A stretch of 64,000 nucleotides of DNA from a virus. The notes below the pieces were generated by a model that was given only the letters and a program-made list of their open reading frames with translations, did not search any database and had not been told where the DNA came from. The position numbers were made by a program, and so were the translations under genes. The DNA is taken from the UHGV virus genome UHGV-1351772; one strand, 5' to 3'. Below, in pieces: positions 1,261 to 54,888 of the stretch; within the stretch, counting starts at the first letter, position 1, and each line of letters opens with the position of its first letter.

Positions 1261-4200
1261 ATGGACGACTGGGACGATTTTGATGAGCCCCCTCGTCAAC
1301 AAGACCAATCGCGTAACCCGGTCATGGACACATTTCGTGCTGCCCGTAAGTCGGCGTTGTCGACTATCTGGCCCGAAAACAAACGTGATCAGGTTATTTT
1401 AAAAGGGATGCCTAAACCTGCGGCAGAAGCCTACGAAGGCTATCAAAACGTTAAAGCTGCAGGTCAAGACATTCTGGCCCATACGAAAGACGAGATTGAA
1501 AAGACGTCTCGCGTCGTCAAGATGCAAGCGAGACAGTTAGGTCCAACACTGAAACGGTATTTACCGGAATCCGTAACACGGAAAATCGACAAGTGGGCAC
1601 GTAACGATCAAATCGACTATGGGAATTACGATCCTAAACAAGCGATGATGGATCGTGAGCTGGACAGCGTGTTCTCAGGCGCACCGCAAACAGCGGACCA
1701 GCAACGTGAGGCGCAAGAGGGGATGGTTGAAGACCGCTTGCGCGACACGATTAAGGACATGAAGTCCGACGCACTGTTCCAGACCGTAATCGGTATTGCA
1801 AAAGACGTCAACTTAACGACTAGCCTAAGTCGTGGCGTGTTGTTGAATGTTCAGCGTAAGCAGTTAGAGCTGCAATATCGGACGCTGTTTGCTTTGCAGG
1901 ATATTGCGAAACTCAAACAAGACGAGTTTGCACGCAACACCCCGGCATTAGAAGCCATCGTTAAGAACACGGCACTACCCGACTACGCGAAGGAAGAGTT
2001 TTCTGAAATTCGTTGGGCTAATGTAAAACGTAAAGCTGCGGAGTGGATGAACCCCTTACACTACGCAGATAATTTCATTGGCCAGATTCGCGAAAACGCG
2101 AAGAAGAAAATCTCGAACATCTTTAGTGATGGTCGTGGGATTCTAGAACAAGTTCTAGGGATGGCTCAGGAAGATGACTTTGACATGTCGGACAGCTCAT
2201 CGTTGTCTCCTGACCGTCGTAACACAAACTCGCGTAATAAAGCGGCAGGTTTTGCAGGTGGTTGGTTAGCAAAACGTCTCTTACAACCCCAGATCGAACG
2301 ACTTCAGAACTGGACGCGTGGCGAGCTAGAGAAAAACCCAGAAGTCATGAAACGCCTACAGTTGGCGAAGTATGGCTTTGGAAATTTGTCGTCTATTTCT
2401 AACTCGGCAATAGCGGGAGAAACAAGCGGTCCGTTAGCTGATCTGTTTCGACTAATGCACGATTTGGGACTAGTTAACCCGCTACGTCGCGAAACCTTAG
2501 CATTAGACGATCGTTCTGCGGAATCTCTTTCTGCGGCGGCGAAGTTCGATCGTAAAGCTTACCTTAGTATCACAGAAGTTATTCCGACGTTACTGTCCGA
2601 GATTAACAAATCTATTCGTCGTGGGTATGGCGAACACCACGATCAGGTTTATGACCTGACCACGCGCGGTATGGTGGATCGCAAAGTTATTGGTAATCGT
2701 GTACGTAAGGCCGTTGCTAATGACGATCAGCGCAAACGTTTACAGACGTACATCAACGACACTGTCGACTTTATCGATAAAGATAAAACGCTCGATAGGA
2801 AAACACGTCAAGCGTTAGCGGACTACATCGAGTCTCGTGCCTCGGAAGGGAAAGCGTTCGATGTAGGGTCTTTATTGAAAGACCCGATGCACATGTATCG
2901 ATACATGAACGCAAACGCTGTGGAAGCGATTCAGGGTGTTTTAGAAGCCCGTTCTGCGGAACTGGTTGGCGGACACCATGAACTGAGTAATGCGATTTCA
3001 AACAAAATCGCCGCTATCCAGTCAACGATTCGTGCACGTCAAGACACGGTTGATGCTGCGTCTGTGATTTACGGCGAGAACGCACTTCGTGATTCCGGTA
3101 TTTTTAAATACGATGCGAAGAAAGACATTTTCGAGGTCGATAAGGACATTAACGATCCCTATACGTTATTTAATGACCTGTCGATGGGTAAGACCCGCTC
3201 TGGACGTTCGTTAACCCGTGAGCAAGAGATTCAGCGTAAATTGCAAAACGGTTCTGCGCTGGGTGATTACTTGCGACGGATGGGTGCAGGCGCAGAGCCG
3301 AGCTTTGAAGACAAAGAACTGTCCAATGTACGTGGCGGTGGAAAAGGAGGTCGTGGTCGCGGTTTAAGCGCACGCCAACTCGCTGCGGTACTTTATGGAG
3401 AGAAATCCACTAACTTTGTTGAACTGTTAAGCAGTCGTCCAGACACGAACGCCGGGTTGGAACAGCAATTCGACCGTTTGATTGATGCTGTACGTAAACA
3501 GCCCGAATCTAGCACAGTGCAAGATATCCTCAAACACGTTAAGAACATGGATGAGGAAGGTATTCTCCTAGCCAGTTTAGGCGGTAGTCGTGATGACGGT
3601 GACGAATCTGAAAGTTCGAGTGACTCGGGTCGTAAACGTCGTCGTAAACGCAAACGTATTGTGCTAGGCGAGACAGGCTTGTTACGCCGTTGGGCTGGGG
3701 TGCTTTGGGATACCGGTTCAGGTGTAGGGCGGTTTGGTAAGAATCTGTTCCTACGTGGGAAAGATCGTCTGCAGGCTTTAGGTGGTTTTATCCGTGGGAA
3801 ATTCTCAGGCGGCTCCTCCGAAGGACCCGGTGTATTTAGCCGACTGAAAGGGTTAGTAACAGGTACTCTATCGACAGGTTGGAATTCTGCTGTAGCTTTC
3901 GGTAAAGGCGTTTTAGGTGTTCGTGATATTTACGATGAACGTGGCAACGTCGTATTACAAGGAAGTCGTTTAGAAGCTGGGGAATATTACCAGGCTGACC
4001 CGAAAACTGAGAAGCTGATTCAACTTAAAACCCTCGACGATATTAAACTGGGACGTGATATTGTCGATGAAGCGGGTAATTTAATCTTAGCTGCTGCTGA
4101 TTTGGCTGCCGCAGGTAAACTGCGTTTCTACAAAGGTGGTAAAGTTCAAGCGCTTTTCCAGTACATTTCTGGGAAAGCAGGAACGGCGGTAAACAAAGCT

Positions 4201-7200
4201 GTGACTTTACCGAAGAAACTTTTAGGCTTCATTTCACCTAAAGCGGCTTCGTTGTTCGAGAAAGCACGTGAGTGGCTAAATGAGGTTCCAGAGGGCGCAG
4301 AGAAAACCCGTTTACAAAGCATGATTTCCCGTGTAACGGGAATGCCAGCGCGTTTGTGGAACAATGCAAAACGCGGGTTTGAGAAGCTCAAAGAGTTGGC
4401 TTCTGATAACCCTCTGACACGTTGGTGGCAGAACCGTAAGGAAGGGGGTTCTGGTGGTGGGTTTAGTGTGTTCTCATGGTCGAACGGCCGTAAAACTAAC
4501 CACATCTTAATCCGTATCTACAAACTCCTTAACCGGAGATTGCCAGGTGAACCAGAAGATGATACCTGGACAGAACAGATGGAGCGGAATACGGGAGCCA
4601 GTTCAGTTAAAGGATTATTCCAACGTGCTAAAGACATACGCGATGGGTTCCGTGAACATTTTCAGGGGTTCCGGGATTGGCGCGGTCGGATGCGTGACAG
4701 AATGTCCCGTTATCGCGGTGCGGTAGGCGATCGTCTTTCTCGTTGGGGCGGTACCGCACGTGGTTGGTTTGATCGTTTCCGTGGCCGTGCAAGCGATATG
4801 GTCGATACTTTCCGCGATCCGCGTTACGATATCGGCACACGTTATCGAATGGAGAGTCGTTTAGCAGGACGCGATGACGATGTTGCTGAGTTTTATCGTC
4901 AACACATCTACGCAAGAGGTAAGGTGTCTAAAACACGTATCATCGATGCGGCAAAAGAAGACTTAGACACCGTAACGGATAGCGCTGGACGTGTGATTAA
5001 TAAAGGGAAACAGAAAGCCCGTAGCGTTGGGTCAGCTTTACTGGAACGCCTGAACCGAATGGTTAATCTTCAGGAAATGTCATGGTTTAACACCATGCGT
5101 GATTCTGCGGAAAAAGCAGGTGCTTCGGATGGTTTGTTAAGAACTATGTTCAGTAAGTTCGGCCAACGCAATAAACCGCCTGCCAGTGATGAAAAACGTG
5201 ATTACTTCCAGTTCTTCCGACGCCGTCGTCGTTCTAAGGAAGAGGAAAAGGCTAAGAAAGAAGCCGAGAAGAAAGGTGGTAAGCGCGGGGTGATGGATTT
5301 CCTTAAAGGACTGCCGTTGGTAGGACCGATTGTGAGTATTTTAGGCACAGTAGGTTCAATCTTAGGTAAAGTCGCGAAATGGGGAATCTTTAAGCCGGTT
5401 GGGTTTGCAGGCAAAGCGTTGTGGAACGTTGGTAAGTTTGCTGTGACTCGTTTGGCTGTCCCTGCGGTGAGTGCTGTCGCGACGGCAGCATCTGCAGTGG
5501 TAACTGCGGTTGGCTGGCCGATTATCGGTTTGGTCGCTGCAGGCGCTGCGCTATCTTGGTTTGCATATAAAACTGCAACCCGTGTGAATGCTCAGTATTT
5601 GGATAACATGCGATTGGCACAGTACGGATTTAGAGATCACGATGAGTGGTCTTCCGACGATGGCGCAAAAGCACGTTATTTAGAAGACAACTTGAAACCG
5701 TACATCTCTTATACAGAGAATGGCCAAGCACAGTTGCGTGGTTTGTCCGGTGACGACGTGAAGAAACTGGCCGAAGGGTTTGGTACTAACGTAGAAGACA
5801 AAGGCGAAATGCTGGCGTTTAGTGCGTTTATGCTACAACGTTTTGTGCCGATCTATTTACGTTGGATTACGGCACTGAAATCCATGGATAATGATATCGC
5901 GTTAGCAGATGTCGGTAATCCTGCGAAAGTGTCGAAGGCAGACATGTTGAATATCTTCAACAAAATGAAGATGTCGAAAGATGCGCCTGCATTCCGTGCA
6001 TTAGAAGATCCCCGCAAGGTTAACCAAGGTTGGTTCTCTAAAGCGTGGGATTTCGTAACGTTTACCCCGGCCGAGTTTTTGTCAGGCGAAGAAGTCGTTG
6101 AAGCGCAAGAACGCGTGCTTCGTTCGATTAACATGCGTCGTGATGAAAAACGTAAGGATGTAAATGCTACAGGCGGTGTGGCCGAAGGACACAAAGTTGC
6201 TTCTGTGGCAGAATCGACCCAAGCGTTGGCTCAAGCGGATGCGGAACGCAACAAAGAAGTTGCGAAAGTCGAAGGTTGGGAAGACGGCACCGAACAAGTT
6301 CAGGTTCAAGTCGACTGGAGAAGCTTACCTAAAGAAACCGATCTCCGTGATTTGGAGTCCGTAAGGTTGAAAGCTTATGGTGCGGTGAGTATTACTCAAA
6401 CAACCCGTAACCTCTATACGCTCTTGGAACGTCAAGTGTTGCAAGACACCGATGTGAAAAGCTGTACGTATAAAGGCGACTGGAAACGTGCGATTGCGGT
6501 GATTGCGCCTGACGCCATTGGTGGGCCAAAAGAAGATCGGTACAAGAACTGGTTCTATAACCGCTTCTTACCTGTCTTCATGACGTACGTGGTTGGGGTG
6601 AAACGTTATGTCCCTGCTGCCGATCCGATGGACCTACGCGTTACGGGTGGGTTCTTGTATGAAATCGCACTGATGATGCGTGGTGCATACAACCTGAAAG
6701 GGGGTATTCGTCAGTCAGTGTGGGAGGTACCGTTTAACCCGTTAGGGGGAGACGCTAACACCGACGCCGGTTCAGTTGCAACGGAGTTAGAGAACCTGAA
6801 AGAACTGTCTAAGGAAGCTGATTTGGCAGTACGTAAAACGCTGCGTGCTACGCCTTCTGCGGGTTTCCGTGTGAACTGGCAGCGAAAAGATCGCGCGACT
6901 CAGATGTTCTTGACCGACGATGAGAAGGAGCAACCGTCTCGACCACAGATGAACACCTCCTCCTCTTATCGTGACCTATTGCAACCAGCGGCAAACGACG
7001 GTGGGAATTACGGCACACCAAACGATTTGGCCGGTGCTTACGGTCAGATGGGAGCTAAGAATTACGCTGCATTTACTACCGGTAACTTCGGCGTGAAACT
7101 TGGCGATATGCAAGACGGTGACTATAAAACGTTAGCGGCTAAGTATCCAATTTCAACGTTGGGTGACGGATTGAAGCCTAACTTGAATGCGGTTGCAGCA

Positions 7201-50550: not shown

Positions 50551-51105
50551 TTAAGCAGGGTAAGCTAAGAACAACAGCTGCTGGCCGATTTTACGTACGG
50601 TATACCAACCGTGGGCTTTAGCGACCGCGATCAACGTTTCCCAGTCGTCAACATCGCACTGTTCATTCCGAAGTCTTGTAAAGAGTGCCTCGGCTTCGCT
50701 TTGGTTTAATAACTTACCTGGGTTGTCTGGGGTGCAGTCAGTAGGGGTTGGAAAGAAAGTATACTGACGCGCTAGGAGAAAATCGACCAGATACTTGGTA
50801 TTTTCTTTATAAACCAGCGTGGAAGACTTTCCTTCGTGGAAGAAGCTGCCTGTTTTCCAAGCGCTATCCCCCAGTAAGCTCTGAAGGTAATCTGTAAAGC
50901 CCGTTCTGAAAGGGATATGGTTTTTACGTGTGATGTTACGACGCAGCGGGGTTTCCTCTACAGCTTGTACACTTACCCCTACTATCATCGCACCTGGCTG
51001 AATAATGCTATTGGTCAGTACGGTATAAGGACGGACAAAGAAATGTTCGCCTACGCCCTTTTCAAGGGTTTGGATAATTTCATTTTTCAGTTCAGTTTGA
51101 AACAT
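50551..51105 (-). CDS. Paralog family member 3
   Basis: 184 aa; ends KAHGWYTVRKIGQQLLFLAYPA. Confidence 0.65.
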   Translation of the reverse strand: MFQTELKNEIIQTLEKGVGEHFFVRPYTVLTNSIIQPGAMIVGVSVQAVEETPLRRNITRKNHIPFRTGFTDYLQSLLGDSAWKTGSFFHEGKSSTLVYKENTKYLVDFLLARQYTFFPTPTDCTPDNPGKLLNQSEAEALFTRLRNEQCDVDDWETLIAVAKAHGWYTVRKIGQQLLFLAYPA

Positions 51106-51136
51106 GGTATATTCTCCTTTTTTTCGGTTTTCTTAA

Positions 51137-51874
51137 TTACGCAGTTTTAATTAACAGCAGATAGTCCTTCGTAATCTCAGCACAACTCCACCCTCTCATC
51201 GTGGCGATTTTACGAAGATCAATTTTCTCGTGATATTTCAATAAGGGATCGTCCGGGTTAATTTCAACCAGGTGTGTGGCTTTAGAAATCGTTTCCACAT
51301 CTGGGATCTGTTTTGCTAAGTCGGATGCAATCAGTTCAATAACGCGGTATCCCTTTAACACAGAAACATAGATGCGCAAGCCATATAGCGTGCCCTCGTC
51401 TTCTAATGGACAAAGATCGATGCCGGGTCCAAGCAGTGATAACTCGACGTTATCGGGAAGGTTTTCTGCATTTCGGAGTAACCCTATCCCATTTCTAAAC
51501 AGAGGGAAGTAAGAGAATAGTGGTGGTAAAGGCCAACCGTTCCCAATAAGCACATCATCGATACTAGTAGGCGTGTTCGCAAGAAGACGAATGTGGTCAG
51601 CCACAACTTCAAGTTCGGCATCACTGATCAACTTATAGATTAACATGACGCTGGTTTCGGTATTAAAAACAAAGAAGACGCGGTTGGCGTAACTACCTAT
51701 CACGTATTCGTCAATCAAGCAGTCGATAACGTCACTGTCTGGATAATCTTCAGGTTTAATTGTTCCAGCATCGATTAACTTAGCAGGTTGCGATTGTTTT
51801 ATTAGTTCGTTAACCACCGTAGAAGAAAGTTCTAAACTGGTATTGGTAAAGATATCGTCTAATAATTCTCTCAT
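51137..51874 (-). CDS. Paralog family member 4
   Basis: 245 aa; ends TMRGWSCAEITKDYLLLIKTA; first gene leftward of the divergent regulatory region. Confidence 0.6.
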   Translation of the reverse strand: MRELLDDIFTNTSLELSSTVVNELIKQSQPAKLIDAGTIKPEDYPDSDVIDCLIDEYVIGSYANRVFFVFNTETSVMLIYKLISDAELEVVADHIRLLANTPTSIDDVLIGNGWPLPPLFSYFPLFRNGIGLLRNAENLPDNVELSLLGPGIDLCPLEDEGTLYGLRIYVSVLKGYRVIELIASDLAKQIPDVETISKATHLVEINPDDPLLKYHEKIDLRKIATMRGWSCAEITKDYLLLIKTA

Positions 51875-51968
51875 GATTTACTCGCTAATCCCAATGAAGG
51901 GAAGGCTATTATTATGGATTGTAAAAGAGGTATAAGGAAGTCACTACGTTCCTCTGGGAAGAGTATGT

Positions 51969-52193: not shown

Positions 52194-53159
52194 ATGGAGA
52201 AATCCAGTGTTGATTTTTTCTCAATTGGTATCGTCGCGGAAGACAAACCCCGTGGTACAGATCGGGTAAAAGTGATACCAATTGAAACTAACTTTGCTAA
52301 CCCTACTGTGGTGCAATCTGTTTCTTCAGCAACTGAAAAGACGCATGAAACATCTGGTGCAACAGATAACCTAACCATTAAGACGGGAAACACGATAACG
52401 GCAAAGTGGTGGAAGTTTAACTCCAACCGAATTAATTCCCCTGACGTTAAACGAGAAGATTACGTTATCTTGTTACGTTTGGGGAAAACCGATATTTATT
52501 TTTGGATTGATCTGAACTTCGCTAACGTTAAGCGATTAGAAGATGCGGTTTATGCGTGGTCGGCTGACCCTGAAAACCAAATGGCGGATGACTTGTCCAA
52601 TGCGTATGTGTTGAACGTTTCGACGATTGACAAACATATCACGCTAAGAACAAGTATGGTGAACGGTGAGAAAGCGGCGTGGTTGTTTCAGTTTGATAAT
52701 GCAAACGGTACGTGGCAGTGCGTTGACCATAAAGGAAACAAGTATTACATTAACTCGGTTGAAGATGATCTCGGGTTTGAGAATGCGATGCTTTCAAAAG
52801 TGAACATCAACAAAGAAGATGCGTTCATTTATTCAAAGCGTTCTATTAACCTGGAAACGAAAACGATTAATGAAAAATGCGAAGTCCGCAATACGGAAGC
52901 AGCGAATTCCGTTACGTTTAAAACACAAACCTGGTTAACAGAAGCGGGCAGTTCGACAACGTTTAAAACGCCGAACTTTAAACAAGAAGGGAAGGAAGCG
53001 ATGTTCACCGGTAATTTGGAAGTCGCTAAGAACTTCAAATACGGTGGTACGGGTGAGGGTGTGGGTGTCTTTACGGTTAAAGATGCCGTTATTTCCGGTA
53101 TTACCTTTAGCGTTCACATTCACCAAGGTAAACATGGCCCGACATCACCTCCGCAGTAA
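52194..53159 (+). CDS. Putative virion (baseplate/tail) protein, 321 aa
   Basis: AAGGA SD; first gene of plus-strand module leading to tail fibres; no confident motif. Confidence 0.6.
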   Translation: MEKSSVDFFSIGIVAEDKPRGTDRVKVIPIETNFANPTVVQSVSSATEKTHETSGATDNLTIKTGNTITAKWWKFNSNRINSPDVKREDYVILLRLGKTDIYFWIDLNFANVKRLEDAVYAWSADPENQMADDLSNAYVLNVSTIDKHITLRTSMVNGEKAAWLFQFDNANGTWQCVDHKGNKYYINSVEDDLGFENAMLSKVNINKEDAFIYSKRSINLETKTINEKCEVRNTEAANSVTFKTQTWLTEAGSSTTFKTPNFKQEGKEAMFTGNLEVAKNFKYGGTGEGVGVFTVKDAVISGITFSVHIHQGKHGPTSPPQ

Positions 53160-53277
53160 TTCCCCTTTTTCTTACGTTGTTTTTATATATTGTGACCTGA
53201 CGTTGGTAAAGCTTTTTATCAACACTTTTCTTAAACCCATCGTTTAGTTAAGCAGGCCACTTTTTTCGCGCACTCTA

Positions 53278-53297
53278 CTCCTCCCTACGGGGAGGAG
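53278..53297. other. Hairpin CTCCTCCC-TACG-GGGAGGAG upstream of small gene
   Basis: 8-bp GC-rich stem; no U-run on either side. Confidence 0.4.
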
Positions 53298-53365
53298 CTA
53301 TCTTATGCTTCGGTTGTAACACACGTCGGTCTTAGACCACCTTCCTTTTGAAATGGAGAGCTGTT

Positions 53366-53575
53366 ATGTCTATTAAAGAGTTCTCTTCTGCTGAGCATAT
53401 TCCAGAAGAGTTTAAGAAAATCGGTAACGTTAGCGCTTTCGGCGACACCGTTGATCATGTAACGGGTAAGCTGGCTGCTGAAGCTGAAAAAATTGGCGGC
53501 GACGCATTCAAAGTTATCGGTATTTCCGGCAACAACAAACTGCACGGTAACGCAATTGTCTACAAAAAAGACTAA
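53366..53575 (+). CDS. DUF1471 (YdgH/BhsA/McbA-family) domain protein without signal peptide, 69 aa
   Basis: Start at ATG 53366 (GGAGAG SD). KKIGNVSAFGDTVDHVTGKLAAEAEKIGGDAFKVIGISGNNKLHGNAIVYK closely parallels E. coli BhsA QKVGTISANAGTNLGSLEEQLAQKADEMGAKSFRITSVTGPNTLHGTAVIYK (from memory). Confidence 0.7.
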   Translation: MSIKEFSSAEHIPEEFKKIGNVSAFGDTVDHVTGKLAAEAEKIGGDAFKVIGISGNNKLHGNAIVYKKD

Positions 53576-53591
53576 GCGAAAAAAAAACGTG

Positions 53592-53636
53592 CTACTCCTA
53601 CCCTCTTAGAGGGTAGGAGGTTACTTTATTTTTTTC
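53592..53636. terminator. Bidirectional rho-independent terminator
   Basis: CTCCTACCCTC-TTA-GAGGGTAGGAG with T-run downstream and A-run upstream; between convergent genes. Confidence 0.75.
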
Positions 53637-54888
53637 GTGCTCTAAAGCGATGCATTTCTAAATACACTTTTTCCCAGGGACCGAATGGACCGACGATTGC
53701 TTGCGCGTCGTTAATCTTCTTCTGATTATACCACCGGGCTTCACGAAAGACGTAGTTTTGACTGTCGAACTCCGTGGTGTTAAATACCCACTCACCCTCC
53801 TCCCATGTAGGCCAATAGCCCACCGTCTTTCCGAAGCGATTATTTAAGTACCCTAATGGTTTTTCAGAATCAGGATCGCTAGGGTCCTTGAGATAACAAC
53901 GTCCCCAAACTGCGTTATGTGATACACCCACAACCTCTTCTTCTAAATACGGATTATCTACCGTAAAGATAAACGAAGACTCGTGGAGTAAAAGCGCCTT
54001 TAATGTTTCGGGGTTGCGAATACGTTGGACATTAGTAGGTGTTGATAAATCCCCCACACCGATGGCGTCCCAGTCGTAATAGCGACGGGTTTCCAGAACG
54101 GTCCGTGCAAGATCAAAATTCGGTAAAGAAATCATGATCGCACGGTCGGAGAAATAACCGCCAGGAGGCAACCAACGTAATAGTCCACCGATGACGAAAC
54201 CCACCGTTTTTCCCGTGATAGATTCGGGCAGCGAAATCATTAACGTAGAGTAATAGTCGCGTGTAGTGTCGAGCTTGTTTAGGGTAAGGTTGGCAATGGG
54301 GTAAGTTTTAACATTCCCTAACTGACCAAAAACCATACAGCCGATATCTGGCGTACAGGCTCTTCGTACGATTTTACCGGCCCCGGGTAATCGGACACCT
54401 ACGGTATCTGTCTGGTGCGGTACCCATTGACCGTTAATGTTGTACAGTACACTATTACGGTATTTGTCCTTCCACTTGTCCTCACAAACGATGACAACGT
54501 CATCAGCATCGTCTAAGCTGAAATCTTGACTGTGGTGGTACCCAGGCGGACACAGATATGTTTCAACGGGTACGTCAGCATTAATCGATTGGTAATGTGC
54601 CCAACTGAATTCGAGTTTCGGCAATCCGGCTTTTAGAGTAGGGATGACGTTTCCGGCTTTTTCATTTAACCAATCTTGTAAAGTGTCTGTTCGGTTTTGT
54701 AGTTCGGCAAGATGGTATTGGCTGACTAACGTATAGTCTTTACCAAGTGCACTTAAACCGATCTCAAAGGTGTGGTAGTCTGAACACAACGTATTTAAGG
54801 GTTGCGTGACATCGATGGCTCCCCAGGTACGGGACTCTCGAGAGAAGCCAAAAGCGCTGTCGGGCCGCACTTGATAAGCAGTAGTCAC
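53626..54888 (-). CDS. Hypothetical protein, 420 aa (minus-strand gene inside tail module)
   Basis: GTG 54888 with AGAGGA SD; no recognised motif. Confidence 0.6.
   Translation of the reverse strand: MTTAYQVRPDSAFGFSRESRTWGAIDVTQPLNTLCSDYHTFEIGLSALGKDYTLVSQYHLAELQNRTDTLQDWLNEKAGNVIPTLKAGLPKLEFSWAHYQSINADVPVETYLCPPGYHHSQDFSLDDADDVVIVCEDKWKDKYRNSVLYNINGQWVPHQTDTVGVRLPGAGKIVRRACTPDIGCMVFGQLGNVKTYPIANLTLNKLDTTRDYYSTLMISLPESITGKTVGFVIGGLLRWLPPGGYFSDRAIMISLPNFDLARTVLETRRYYDWDAIGVGDLSTPTNVQRIRNPETLKALLLHESSFIFTVDNPYLEEEVVGVSHNAVWGRCYLKDPSDPDSEKPLGYLNNRFGKTVGYWPTWEEGEWVFNTTEFDSQNYVFREARWYNQKKINDAQAIVGPFGPWEKVYLEMHRFRARKK

Follow-up and report, generated by a model that had tools for sequence, protein, structure and literature searches.

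A signal-less DUF1471 gene beside the predicted central tail spike gene of SPN3US-related jumbo phages

Introduction

Most members of the DUF1471 family carry a Sec signal and are periplasmic, and the family is confined to the Enterobacteriaceae (PMC4092069). Host DUF1471 paralogues have been linked to biofilm, aggregation and colanic acid, and both SrfN and a domain of YdgH bind sulfated polyanions or polysaccharides (PMC4092069). YdgH without its signal is non-functional and cannot complement; the periplasm is needed (PMC11705850). A phage-encoded member of this family that lacks the signal is described here. Its gene lies in a 64,000-nucleotide stretch of the virus genome UHGV-1351772, the whole of which is called the window, and it is the orthologue of the gene for gp172 of phage SPN3US (SPN3US_0172, YP_009153466, 'DUF1471 domain-containing protein').

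The window protein has the same domain and predicted fold as the host proteins BhsA (YcfR), McbA, YbiJ, YahO and YhcN (PF07338), and the motif G..F.[VI]....G.N..HG.A.[IV]Y[KR] is common to it and the host single-domain paralogues. It differs from the BhsA/YcfR-type paralogues in that it has no Sec signal, is encoded by a phage and belongs to a tail module. The protein is read here, with a rough probability of 0.4, as a passenger associated with the tail or baseplate that would be carried to the host envelope by the virion and not by Sec export.

DUF1471 membership and fold

The product of the gene is a protein of 69 residues and 7.4 kDa, with an isoelectric point of 6.3 and no cysteine (MSIKEFSSAEHIPEEFKKIGNVSAFGDTVDHVTGKLAAEAEKIGGDAFKVIGISGNNKLHGNAIVYKKD). 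A first-pass annotation, made from the DNA letters without database searches, had placed it in DUF1471, and a search with profile hidden Markov models confirms this: PF07338 matches residues 17-67 over model positions 2-55 of 55, with 38.2 bits against a gathering score of 27 (E=1.4e-9). The protein also matches phrog_8068 (E=4.5e-32), so that the family already has an entry among the PHROGs. A model generated by AlphaFold2 from 44 sequences, with a mean predicted local distance difference test score of 86.1, has the order strand-strand-helix-strand-strand, and its top Foldseek matches in the PDB are the DUF1471 domains 2M2J, 4EVU, 2JNA, 2MA8 and 2NOC (template modelling (TM) scores of 0.62-0.74). 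As modelled, the window protein has the compact alpha+beta DUF1471 fold. The closest solved relative by sequence is YahO from Salmonella (2MA4, 2NOC; E about 2e-3).

The same fold is found in RcsF, the outer-membrane lipoprotein that serves as a sensor of the Rcs stress response (query-normalised TM score of 0.84 to 2Y1B by Foldseek), and the resemblance of DUF1471 to RcsF has already been published (PMC4092069). Identity to RcsF is only about 10%, however, and the window protein has neither the cysteines nor the lipobox and signal of RcsF, which is disulfide-dependent.

A closer tie to BhsA had been claimed as well, in the form of a likeness that runs 'nearly residue by residue', but this was overstated, as identity to host BhsA-type proteins is only 34-49%. 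The NCBIfam equivalog model for BhsA, NF047859, gives the window protein 46.8 bits, far under the cut-off of 90, and only model positions 30-85 of 85 are matched. Judged by these scores the window protein is therefore a member of the DUF1471 family and not an orthologue of BhsA, and the proposed BhsA identity is dropped. Among the NCBIfam models, BhsA scores best for the window protein and for three others of the six phage proteins compared, and McbA lies marginally above BhsA for the proteins of SPN3US and EarlPhillipIV.

The label 'multiple stress resistance protein BhsA' is carried in GenBank by MH221129 (SPAsTU), KX397373 (Stratton), KX397369/NC_031010 (Kwan) and MH426724/NC_048016 (Wellington). 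The other five phage orthologues reach 39-60 bits on the BhsA model, and the labels in these four phages are over-annotations because such scores lie below its cut-off. In STsAS and JN03 the open reading frame exists and is unannotated.

Absence of a signal peptide

The lack of an N-terminal signal peptide, also proposed at the first pass, is borne out by the DNA upstream of the start codon. The only in-frame extension of the open reading frame is of six codons, to a TTG at 53348, and a stop codon lies 10 codons upstream; there is therefore no room for a signal peptide, and an alternative upstream start that would encode one is excluded. The N-terminal Kyte-Doolittle peak, taken over a nine-residue window, is 0.52 for the phage protein and 2.52 for a bacterial BhsA, from Serratia. 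In alignment with host proteins, the phage proteins start at the end of the host signal peptides, with 8-11 residues before the domain versus about 28 in the host proteins.

An in-frame stop codon precedes the ATG by 0-32 codons in 9/9 phages compared, and in SPN3US the two are adjacent. From these comparisons the absence of a signal peptide appears to be a clade-wide feature of the phage DUF1471 proteins. A Sec signal and a periplasmic location are typical of DUF1471 proteins and stand outside the definition of the domain; the window protein has neither feature.

The gene has its own Shine-Dalgarno site, as had been noted. The window, SPAsTU, Stratton and SPN3US share the hexamer TGGAGA at this site without change, and the Derbicusvirus phages have TGAGGA in its place.

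Distribution in jumbo phages

At the DNA level the region shares about 74% identity with relatives of the jumbo phages SPN3US and phiEaH2, and the window is a jumbo phage of this kind. A metagenome contig from the European Nucleotide Archive (ENA) has a 99%-identical copy of the DUF1471 gene in the same gene order. With the clade defined as the 62 records that carry a close homologue of the SPN3US baseplate protein gp171, tblastn finds the DUF1471 gene in 60 phage records. Both of the apparent non-carriers are Erwinia phage Caitlin, which has a 69-residue DUF1471 gene at the same site (51.3 bits with the Pfam model), missed because it is too divergent for the tblastn threshold used.

The gene is thus present at the same site in 62/62 records, which come from Seoulvirus, Erskinevirus, Machinavirus, Wellingtonvirus and Derbicusvirus, and this answers the question, raised at the first pass, of whether related phages carry it there. 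All 62 carriers infect Salmonella, Erwinia, Escherichia, Cronobacter or Proteus. In every locus inspected the order is identical, with the spike gene followed by the DUF1471 gene and then by the convergent gp171-like gene. The orthologues of phiEaH2, SPAsTU, Stratton, Machina, Kwan, CR5 and SPN3US are 67-73 residues long; like the window gene, these gp172-type genes have the same site and terminator and encode no signal peptide. The window protein is 80% identical to that of SPAsTU, its nearest relative in GenBank, 72% to those of Stratton and phiEaH2 and 44% to that of SPN3US.

Outside the clade, the DUF1471 gene is absent from Goslar, Phikzvirus, Agricanvirus and N1M2, despite their spike or gp171 homologues. 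In Agricanvirus and N1M2 the convergent gene comes directly after the spike gene, and in Phikzvirus the gene for gp163.1 does; a DUF1471 gene is at this place only in the SPN3US-related clade. Goslar has no DUF1471 gene beside its gp171 homologue. Goslar was considered as proof of an insertion between convergent homologous genes, and was rejected as such given that Goslar_00031 has no BLASTP similarity to the window spike. A search of 50,697 phage records with a host BhsA query found no phages beyond this clade, and the alignments begin from residue 30/31 of the query.

The only DUF1471 matches in the phage collection from outside the jumbo phages, AGRM01000002 and AGRM01000004, are chromosomal contigs of Salmonella houtenae. 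An NCBI Third Party Annotation contig of 23 kb, labelled Salmonella enterica, encodes a 69-residue DUF1471 protein of the phage type; the contig is probably jumbo-phage DNA within a bacterial assembly.

A fixed gene and not a variable insert

For pairs with unsaturated synonymous sites, the ratio of nonsynonymous to synonymous substitution rates (dN/dS) is 0.05-0.13. The DUF1471 gene is real, translated and under purifying selection. Its very short length, and the fact that its function is not known, might suggest a hitch-hiker without function or a reading frame that arose by chance. This is scarcely credible, and is already effectively refuted, given the dN/dS values, the retention of the gene in all 62 records and five genera, the conserved Shine-Dalgarno site and terminator, the peptides observed for SPN3US and the confident fold model.

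Base composition is also unexceptional, with 42.9% G+C overall and 44.3% at third codon positions, where the neighbouring genes have 42.5-46.6% G+C and the window 45.1%. In most pairs of phages the identity of the protein follows that of both flanking structural proteins. The gene had been called a moron-like insert, and it does resemble the classical morons of lambda and HK97, which are inserts of late operons: these are likewise small units bounded by hairpins or terminators, are swapped as cassettes and lie among structural genes. Unlike those morons, the window gene is fixed in its clade, has a normal composition and is carried by a virulent jumbo phage. Because it occurs in every record of the clade, is under purifying selection and has a base composition like that of its neighbours, the gene is a fixed component of the spike/baseplate module and not a variable moron, and the earlier description has to be given up.

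The source of the gene appears to have been an enterobacterial host. In a neighbour-joining tree with BhsA-like host proteins, for which the host sequences were thinned, the phage proteins are monophyletic in 38/50 bootstraps, a weak value over about 57 aligned columns. This result agrees with the host-family origin proposed earlier, and is consistent with a one-time capture by the ancestor of the clade, from the BhsA-like side of the family. An enterobacterial origin matches the hosts of these phages, because the family is confined to the Enterobacteriaceae. The Sec signal would then have been lost, and the gene would have settled directly after the spike gene as a small transcription unit of its own.

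The gene does vary within its fixed position. Two allele classes are about 43-45% identical, and their spread is discordant with genus: the window, phiEaH2, Stratton, SPAsTU and Machina have class 1, and SPN3US and Caitlin have class 2. SPAsTU and SPN3US, for example, have flanking proteins that are 75% and 84.5% identical and DUF1471 proteins that are 43% identical. In sliding windows the exchanged block is limited to the open reading frame of about 210 nucleotides, both for SPAsTU against SPN3US and Stratton and, in a second, independent comparison, for Caitlin (3799-4008) against Machina (3798-4007). On this evidence the two allele classes appear to swap among lineages as a gene-sized cassette. 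Of the earlier description of a self-contained unit, the part that concerns exchange as a gene-sized cassette therefore stands; the part that concerns a variable insert does not, since the gene is fixed in the clade.

Wellingtonvirus has a tandem second DUF1471 gene directly downstream of the first, in Kwan (4287-4847 on the plus strand of the compared locus) and in Wellington. The second product is of 186 residues, with a signal-less domain (29.7 bits with the Pfam model) and a tail of about 120 residues that is acidic and, to judge by composition, apparently disordered. A 52-residue open reading frame is also annotated in the upstream spacer in Wellingtonvirus.

The first-pass annotation had suggested that the insert may mimic the DUF1471 stress proteins of the host, or serve as a decoy for them, in the cytoplasm; such a moron would titrate or mislead a host factor that normally deals with the family. 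The host-derived domain, the missing signal peptide, the terminator and possible promoter of its own and the gene-sized exchange cassette can all be taken in its favor. Nevertheless, host members are exported and periplasmic, and signal-less YdgH cannot complement (PMC11705850); the folded domain has no known cytoplasmic partner. The fixation of the gene in 62/62 records, its neighbour-like base composition and its place in a structural module, directly after the spike gene, also speak against a decoy. No defence-related model of PADLOC matched the window protein, and the phages are virulent, so that the logic of a moron that benefits a lysogen is inapplicable. The decoy is considered improbable, and weaker than the assembly role considered below.

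Neighbouring genes of the tail module

The first pass had placed the gene among tail genes, and both neighbours fit this placement (Table 1). Upstream, residues 4-259 of the encoded protein match PHIKZ164 of phiKZ in PDB 6ORJ and 9XPH (E=1.2e-21), and its C-terminus, residues 267-320, matches the apex of Mu gp45 (3VTN, 3VTO and 9KI1; E=0.001-0.006) and ends in an HxH motif (VHIHQ). By homology this gene is that of the central tail spike, the cell-puncturing device, although relatives carry the label 'baseplate assembly protein' for it. The phiKZ protein gp164 is the spike in a structural atlas of 2026 (PMC13250141). Two hypervariable stretches, with 30-60% nucleotide identity among relatives, are the spike's C-terminal third and the spacer that follows.

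Downstream, the convergent gene encodes a gp171-like protein that matches PHIKZ130 in PDB 9XQD_L (E=8e-9). In the outer baseplate of phiKZ, gp130 joins the star lobes, and the fibre attachment sites lie beneath it (PMC13250141). SPN3US gp171 is essential and tail-associated (PMC5105663), and both gp171 and gp173 of SPN3US have been scored 'Tail' (PMC10052503). The DUF1471 gene thus sits inside a tail/baseplate module, between homologues of the phiKZ gp164 spike and of gp130.

Table 1. Features of the DUF1471 locus; positions refer to the window, except for the SPN3US row, which refers to the locus used in the comparison.
Feature	Position	Strand	Details
Predicted central tail spike gene, SPN3US gp173 orthologue	52194-53159	+	phrog_3216, E=1.4e-113
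Conserved 14-nucleotide block GCCACTTTTTTCGC	53256-53269	+	in the spacer between spike and DUF1471 genes
Upstream hairpin CTCCTCCC-TACG-GGGAGGAG	53278-53297	+	8 bp, of which 6 G-C; centroid -17.2 kcal/mol
Conserved TATG	53304-53307	+	59 nucleotides upstream of ATG; candidate late start (inferred)
Shine-Dalgarno GGAG	53355-53358	+	7 nucleotides before ATG; read from sequence
DUF1471 gene, SPN3US gp172 orthologue	53366-53575	+	ATG, 69 codons, TAA
Bidirectional intrinsic terminator	53579-53635	.	A9 at 53579-87, 11-bp stem at 53595-53619, T7 at 53629-35
Baseplate protein gene, SPN3US gp171 orthologue, convergent	53626-54888	-	phrog_3337, E=6.1e-144
SPN3US open reading frame in compared locus	6001-6210	n/a	allele-exchange comparison with SPAsTU

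The slot that the DUF1471 gene fills is equivalent to that of phiKZ gp163.1, a monomeric spike tip of the PAAR type that is likewise encoded by a small gene (88 residues in KEN49) directly after the spike gene. The two proteins are not alike, however: the window protein has a different fold and no PAAR motif, and PAAR families are absent among its Pfam matches at E<=0.1. The spacer after the spike gene also differs, with 206 nucleotides and a hairpin in the window versus 9 nucleotides in the phiKZ type. Whereas phiKZ has a shorter spike and a separate PAAR tip in gp163.1, the window spike has a fused apex like that of Mu gp45, and because of this apex of its own a separate tip may be needless in the window phage.

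An insertion of about 810 nucleotides lies further upstream, at about 51097-51909. It has an open reading frame of 245 residues on the minus strand (51137-51874) that has no Pfam or PHROG match, and it is missing from the near-identical ENA contig, whose flanking proteins are 94-99% identical and which has another insert of about 90 nucleotides nearby instead. In contrast to the DUF1471 gene, this moron-like gene, a short distance upstream of that of the spike, is truly variable.

Flanking elements and expression signals

The hairpin upstream of the DUF1471 gene and the bidirectional terminator downstream, both reported at the first pass, were found again. The upstream hairpin, the second-best terminator-like site between 49 and 60 kb, looks from its sequence like the terminator of the spike gene, though its U tract is weak. 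Hairpins of differing sequence lie at the equivalent position in SPAsTU, Stratton and Kwan. The downstream terminator is common to the convergent DUF1471 and gp171-like genes and is the best terminator-like site within the same 11 kb; its two strands give energies of -29.7 and -28.4 kcal/mol, and z-scores of -6.0 and -5.3. SPAsTU, Stratton and SPN3US have kept it, and the changes in its stem there are compensatory.

A conserved block of 14 nucleotides, GCCACTTTTTTCGC, precedes the upstream hairpin. Four phages of different genera, the window, SPAsTU, Stratton and SPN3US, have the block unchanged, although the spacer around it is highly variable, and Kwan largely keeps it. There is no second copy within the window, and RNAalifold predicts no conserved pairs for it. 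An Rfam scan of 52900-53900 gave one match, to a Drosophila long non-coding RNA family, which was rejected as chance (21.5 bits against a gathering score of 50).

Jumbo phages of this kind use their own polymerases. A sigma-70 promoter scan gave no excess over shuffled sequence, with 17 sites versus 16.5. In 9/9 phages compared a TATG, in most of them TATGC, stands 38-65 nucleotides 5' of the ATG. For the non-virion RNA polymerase of phiKZ, late promoters have the consensus TATG with the start at G (PMC4666361), and by analogy the conserved TATG would be a candidate start site for the non-virion RNA polymerase of the phage. SPN3US, SPAsTU, Stratton and Kwan all have, in front of the gene, a longer motif that resembles the middle-plus-late promoters of phiKZ, TTAC-N16-TATG.

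Possible virion association of gp172

Direct evidence on the location of the protein comes from SPN3US. In 2017, gp172 was found in particles from a single CsCl gradient and described as '7 kDa, the smallest SPN3US virion protein'; the identification came from 4 unique peptides and 6 spectra, which covered 81% of the sequence (PMC5694885). Its mass-normalised spectral count was 0.86, versus 0.93 for the portal, and it was given no head-protein flag; terminase and DNA polymerase were undetected in the same preparation (PMC5694885).

Several results weigh against a place in the virion, or leave it less well supported. Particles of the 47(am1) mutant had no gp172 (PMC5694885), and in virions purified twice on CsCl in 2023, analysis of which gave 102 phage proteins, gp172 was not included (PMC10052503). 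The 2023 table passes from gp171 to gp173, and its smallest protein is of 10.5 kDa, with a more sensitive instrument in use (PMC10052503). The authors of the 2017 study remarked that the low-mass region of the gel was perhaps missed for 47(am1) (PMC5694885), and loss of this region is a possible explanation for the absence of gp172. The evidence for an association with virions is thus real but unreproduced, and the association is not secure. No homologue is present in any solved phage virion structure, and phiKZ is altogether without a DUF1471 gene. The binding of polyanions by SrfN is the sole established biochemical function of a DUF1471 domain (PMC4092069).

The locus itself adds further points on the same side. 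The allele swaps leave the C-terminus of the spike behind, and no link was found between allele class and spike C-terminus; the swaps therefore do not speak for a close co-adaptation between the protein and the variable spike region. The promoter assignment leans on a single motif of four nucleotides, which is a weak point. The extended motif was rejected because it is not enriched in the window, where TTAC-N15-17-TATG has 9 sites versus 6.4 +/- 2.5 expected, and the bare TATG was kept as the candidate.

Possible roles of the window protein

A link to the virion and tail is nonetheless proposed, because the neighbouring genes encode the spike and a baseplate protein, gp172 has once been found in virions and the TATG is like a late promoter. 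The DUF1471 protein would be made in the cytoplasm, probably late, alongside the tail proteins, and would attach, in few copies, to the tail or baseplate close to the spike. An export signal would be unneeded, because the protein would join the tail or baseplate and not cross the inner membrane. It would then meet the host envelope, the usual working compartment of the DUF1471 family, from the side of the virion, at adsorption or penetration. There it probably acts by binding and not as an enzyme, with anionic glycans or proteins of the envelope as possible targets, which is proposed because SrfN binds sulfated polysaccharides.

The main rival is that the protein is a late protein outside the finished particle, namely a cytoplasmic chaperone or scaffold for gp173 or gp171. 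Such a helper would suit a gene between those for the spike and an essential baseplate protein, and would need no signal peptide. The purer virion proteome of 2023 lacks gp172, and the earlier detection consists of only 6 spectra, with none in the 47(am1) mutant. Yet the 2017 preparation that contained gp172 had no detected terminase or DNA polymerase, and no DUF1471 domain is known as a chaperone. Moreover, Phikzvirus, Agricanvirus, N1M2 and Goslar build homologous spikes or baseplates without a DUF1471 protein, and the free swap of alleles that are 43-45% identical, with the partner genes unchanged, is unusual for a dedicated factor. An assembly helper is rated somewhat less likely than the tail-associated passenger, and well above the decoy.

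The proposed association with the tail can be taken one step further. The lysozyme gp5 of T4, and cargo of the type VI secretion system (T6SS) that is linked to VgrG or PAAR proteins, reach the periplasm on contractile spikes without the aid of Sec. These proteins are likewise signal-less and encoded beside a spike gene. The analogy is functional only, as there is no homology, and the binding of the window protein to the spike and its delivery are putative. If the contractile tail were used in this way as a route independent of Sec, a few copies on or near the spike would be left in the periplasm at penetration, much as T6SS cargo is. This more specific proposal is unlikely, at clearly lower odds than the assembly helper and only slightly better ones than the decoy. 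A protein delivered in this manner would interfere with envelope sensing or permeability. Signalling related to Rcs or colanic acid would be a candidate target, because the fold is like that of RcsF and the family is tied to capsule and biofilm. The swapping allele classes would reflect an arms race with host-specific envelope targets.

The protein might instead be released by lysis and act from outside on neighbouring cells or matrix, with effects on aggregation, biofilm or capsule, traits that have been tied to BhsA and McbA. Release by lysis needs no signal peptide, the host paralogues are tied to biofilm, aggregation and colanic acid (PMC4092069), and the second paralogue in Wellingtonvirus, with its long, acidic and disordered tail, could be understood in this way. 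There is no direct evidence for such a factor, however; it would still have the outer membrane to cross in order to reach the periplasm, and the position of the gene next to that of the spike would be unexplained. Release by lysis is thus very improbable, more so than the decoy, and is ranked above only the chance reading frame.

Implications

The gene family is already catalogued in these phages as PHROG 8068 and is partly annotated as DUF1471 or BhsA, and the window adds a new member. In the literature on BhsA or DUF1471 with jumbo or Erwinia phages, no paper that discusses the gene was found. What may be new is the position adjacent to the spike gene, the link between gp172 and DUF1471, the fixation in five genera and the exchange of two alleles as a cassette. 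Two annotations are also corrected, in that the 'BhsA' labels of these phages go beyond the evidence and the adjacent 'baseplate assembly protein' is, by homology, the central spike.

DUF1471 is a large family, confined to Enterobacterales and tied to stress, biofilm and outer-membrane homeostasis. A clade of nucleus-forming jumbo phages has long kept a signal-less copy after its spike gene while swapping two alleles of it, which amounts to a natural experiment: the domain, on its own, benefits a virus whose target is the same envelope in which the host family operates. The genetics of amber mutants and the virion proteomics available for SPN3US make the question of gp172 directly testable, and such tests could also reveal what DUF1471 domains bind.

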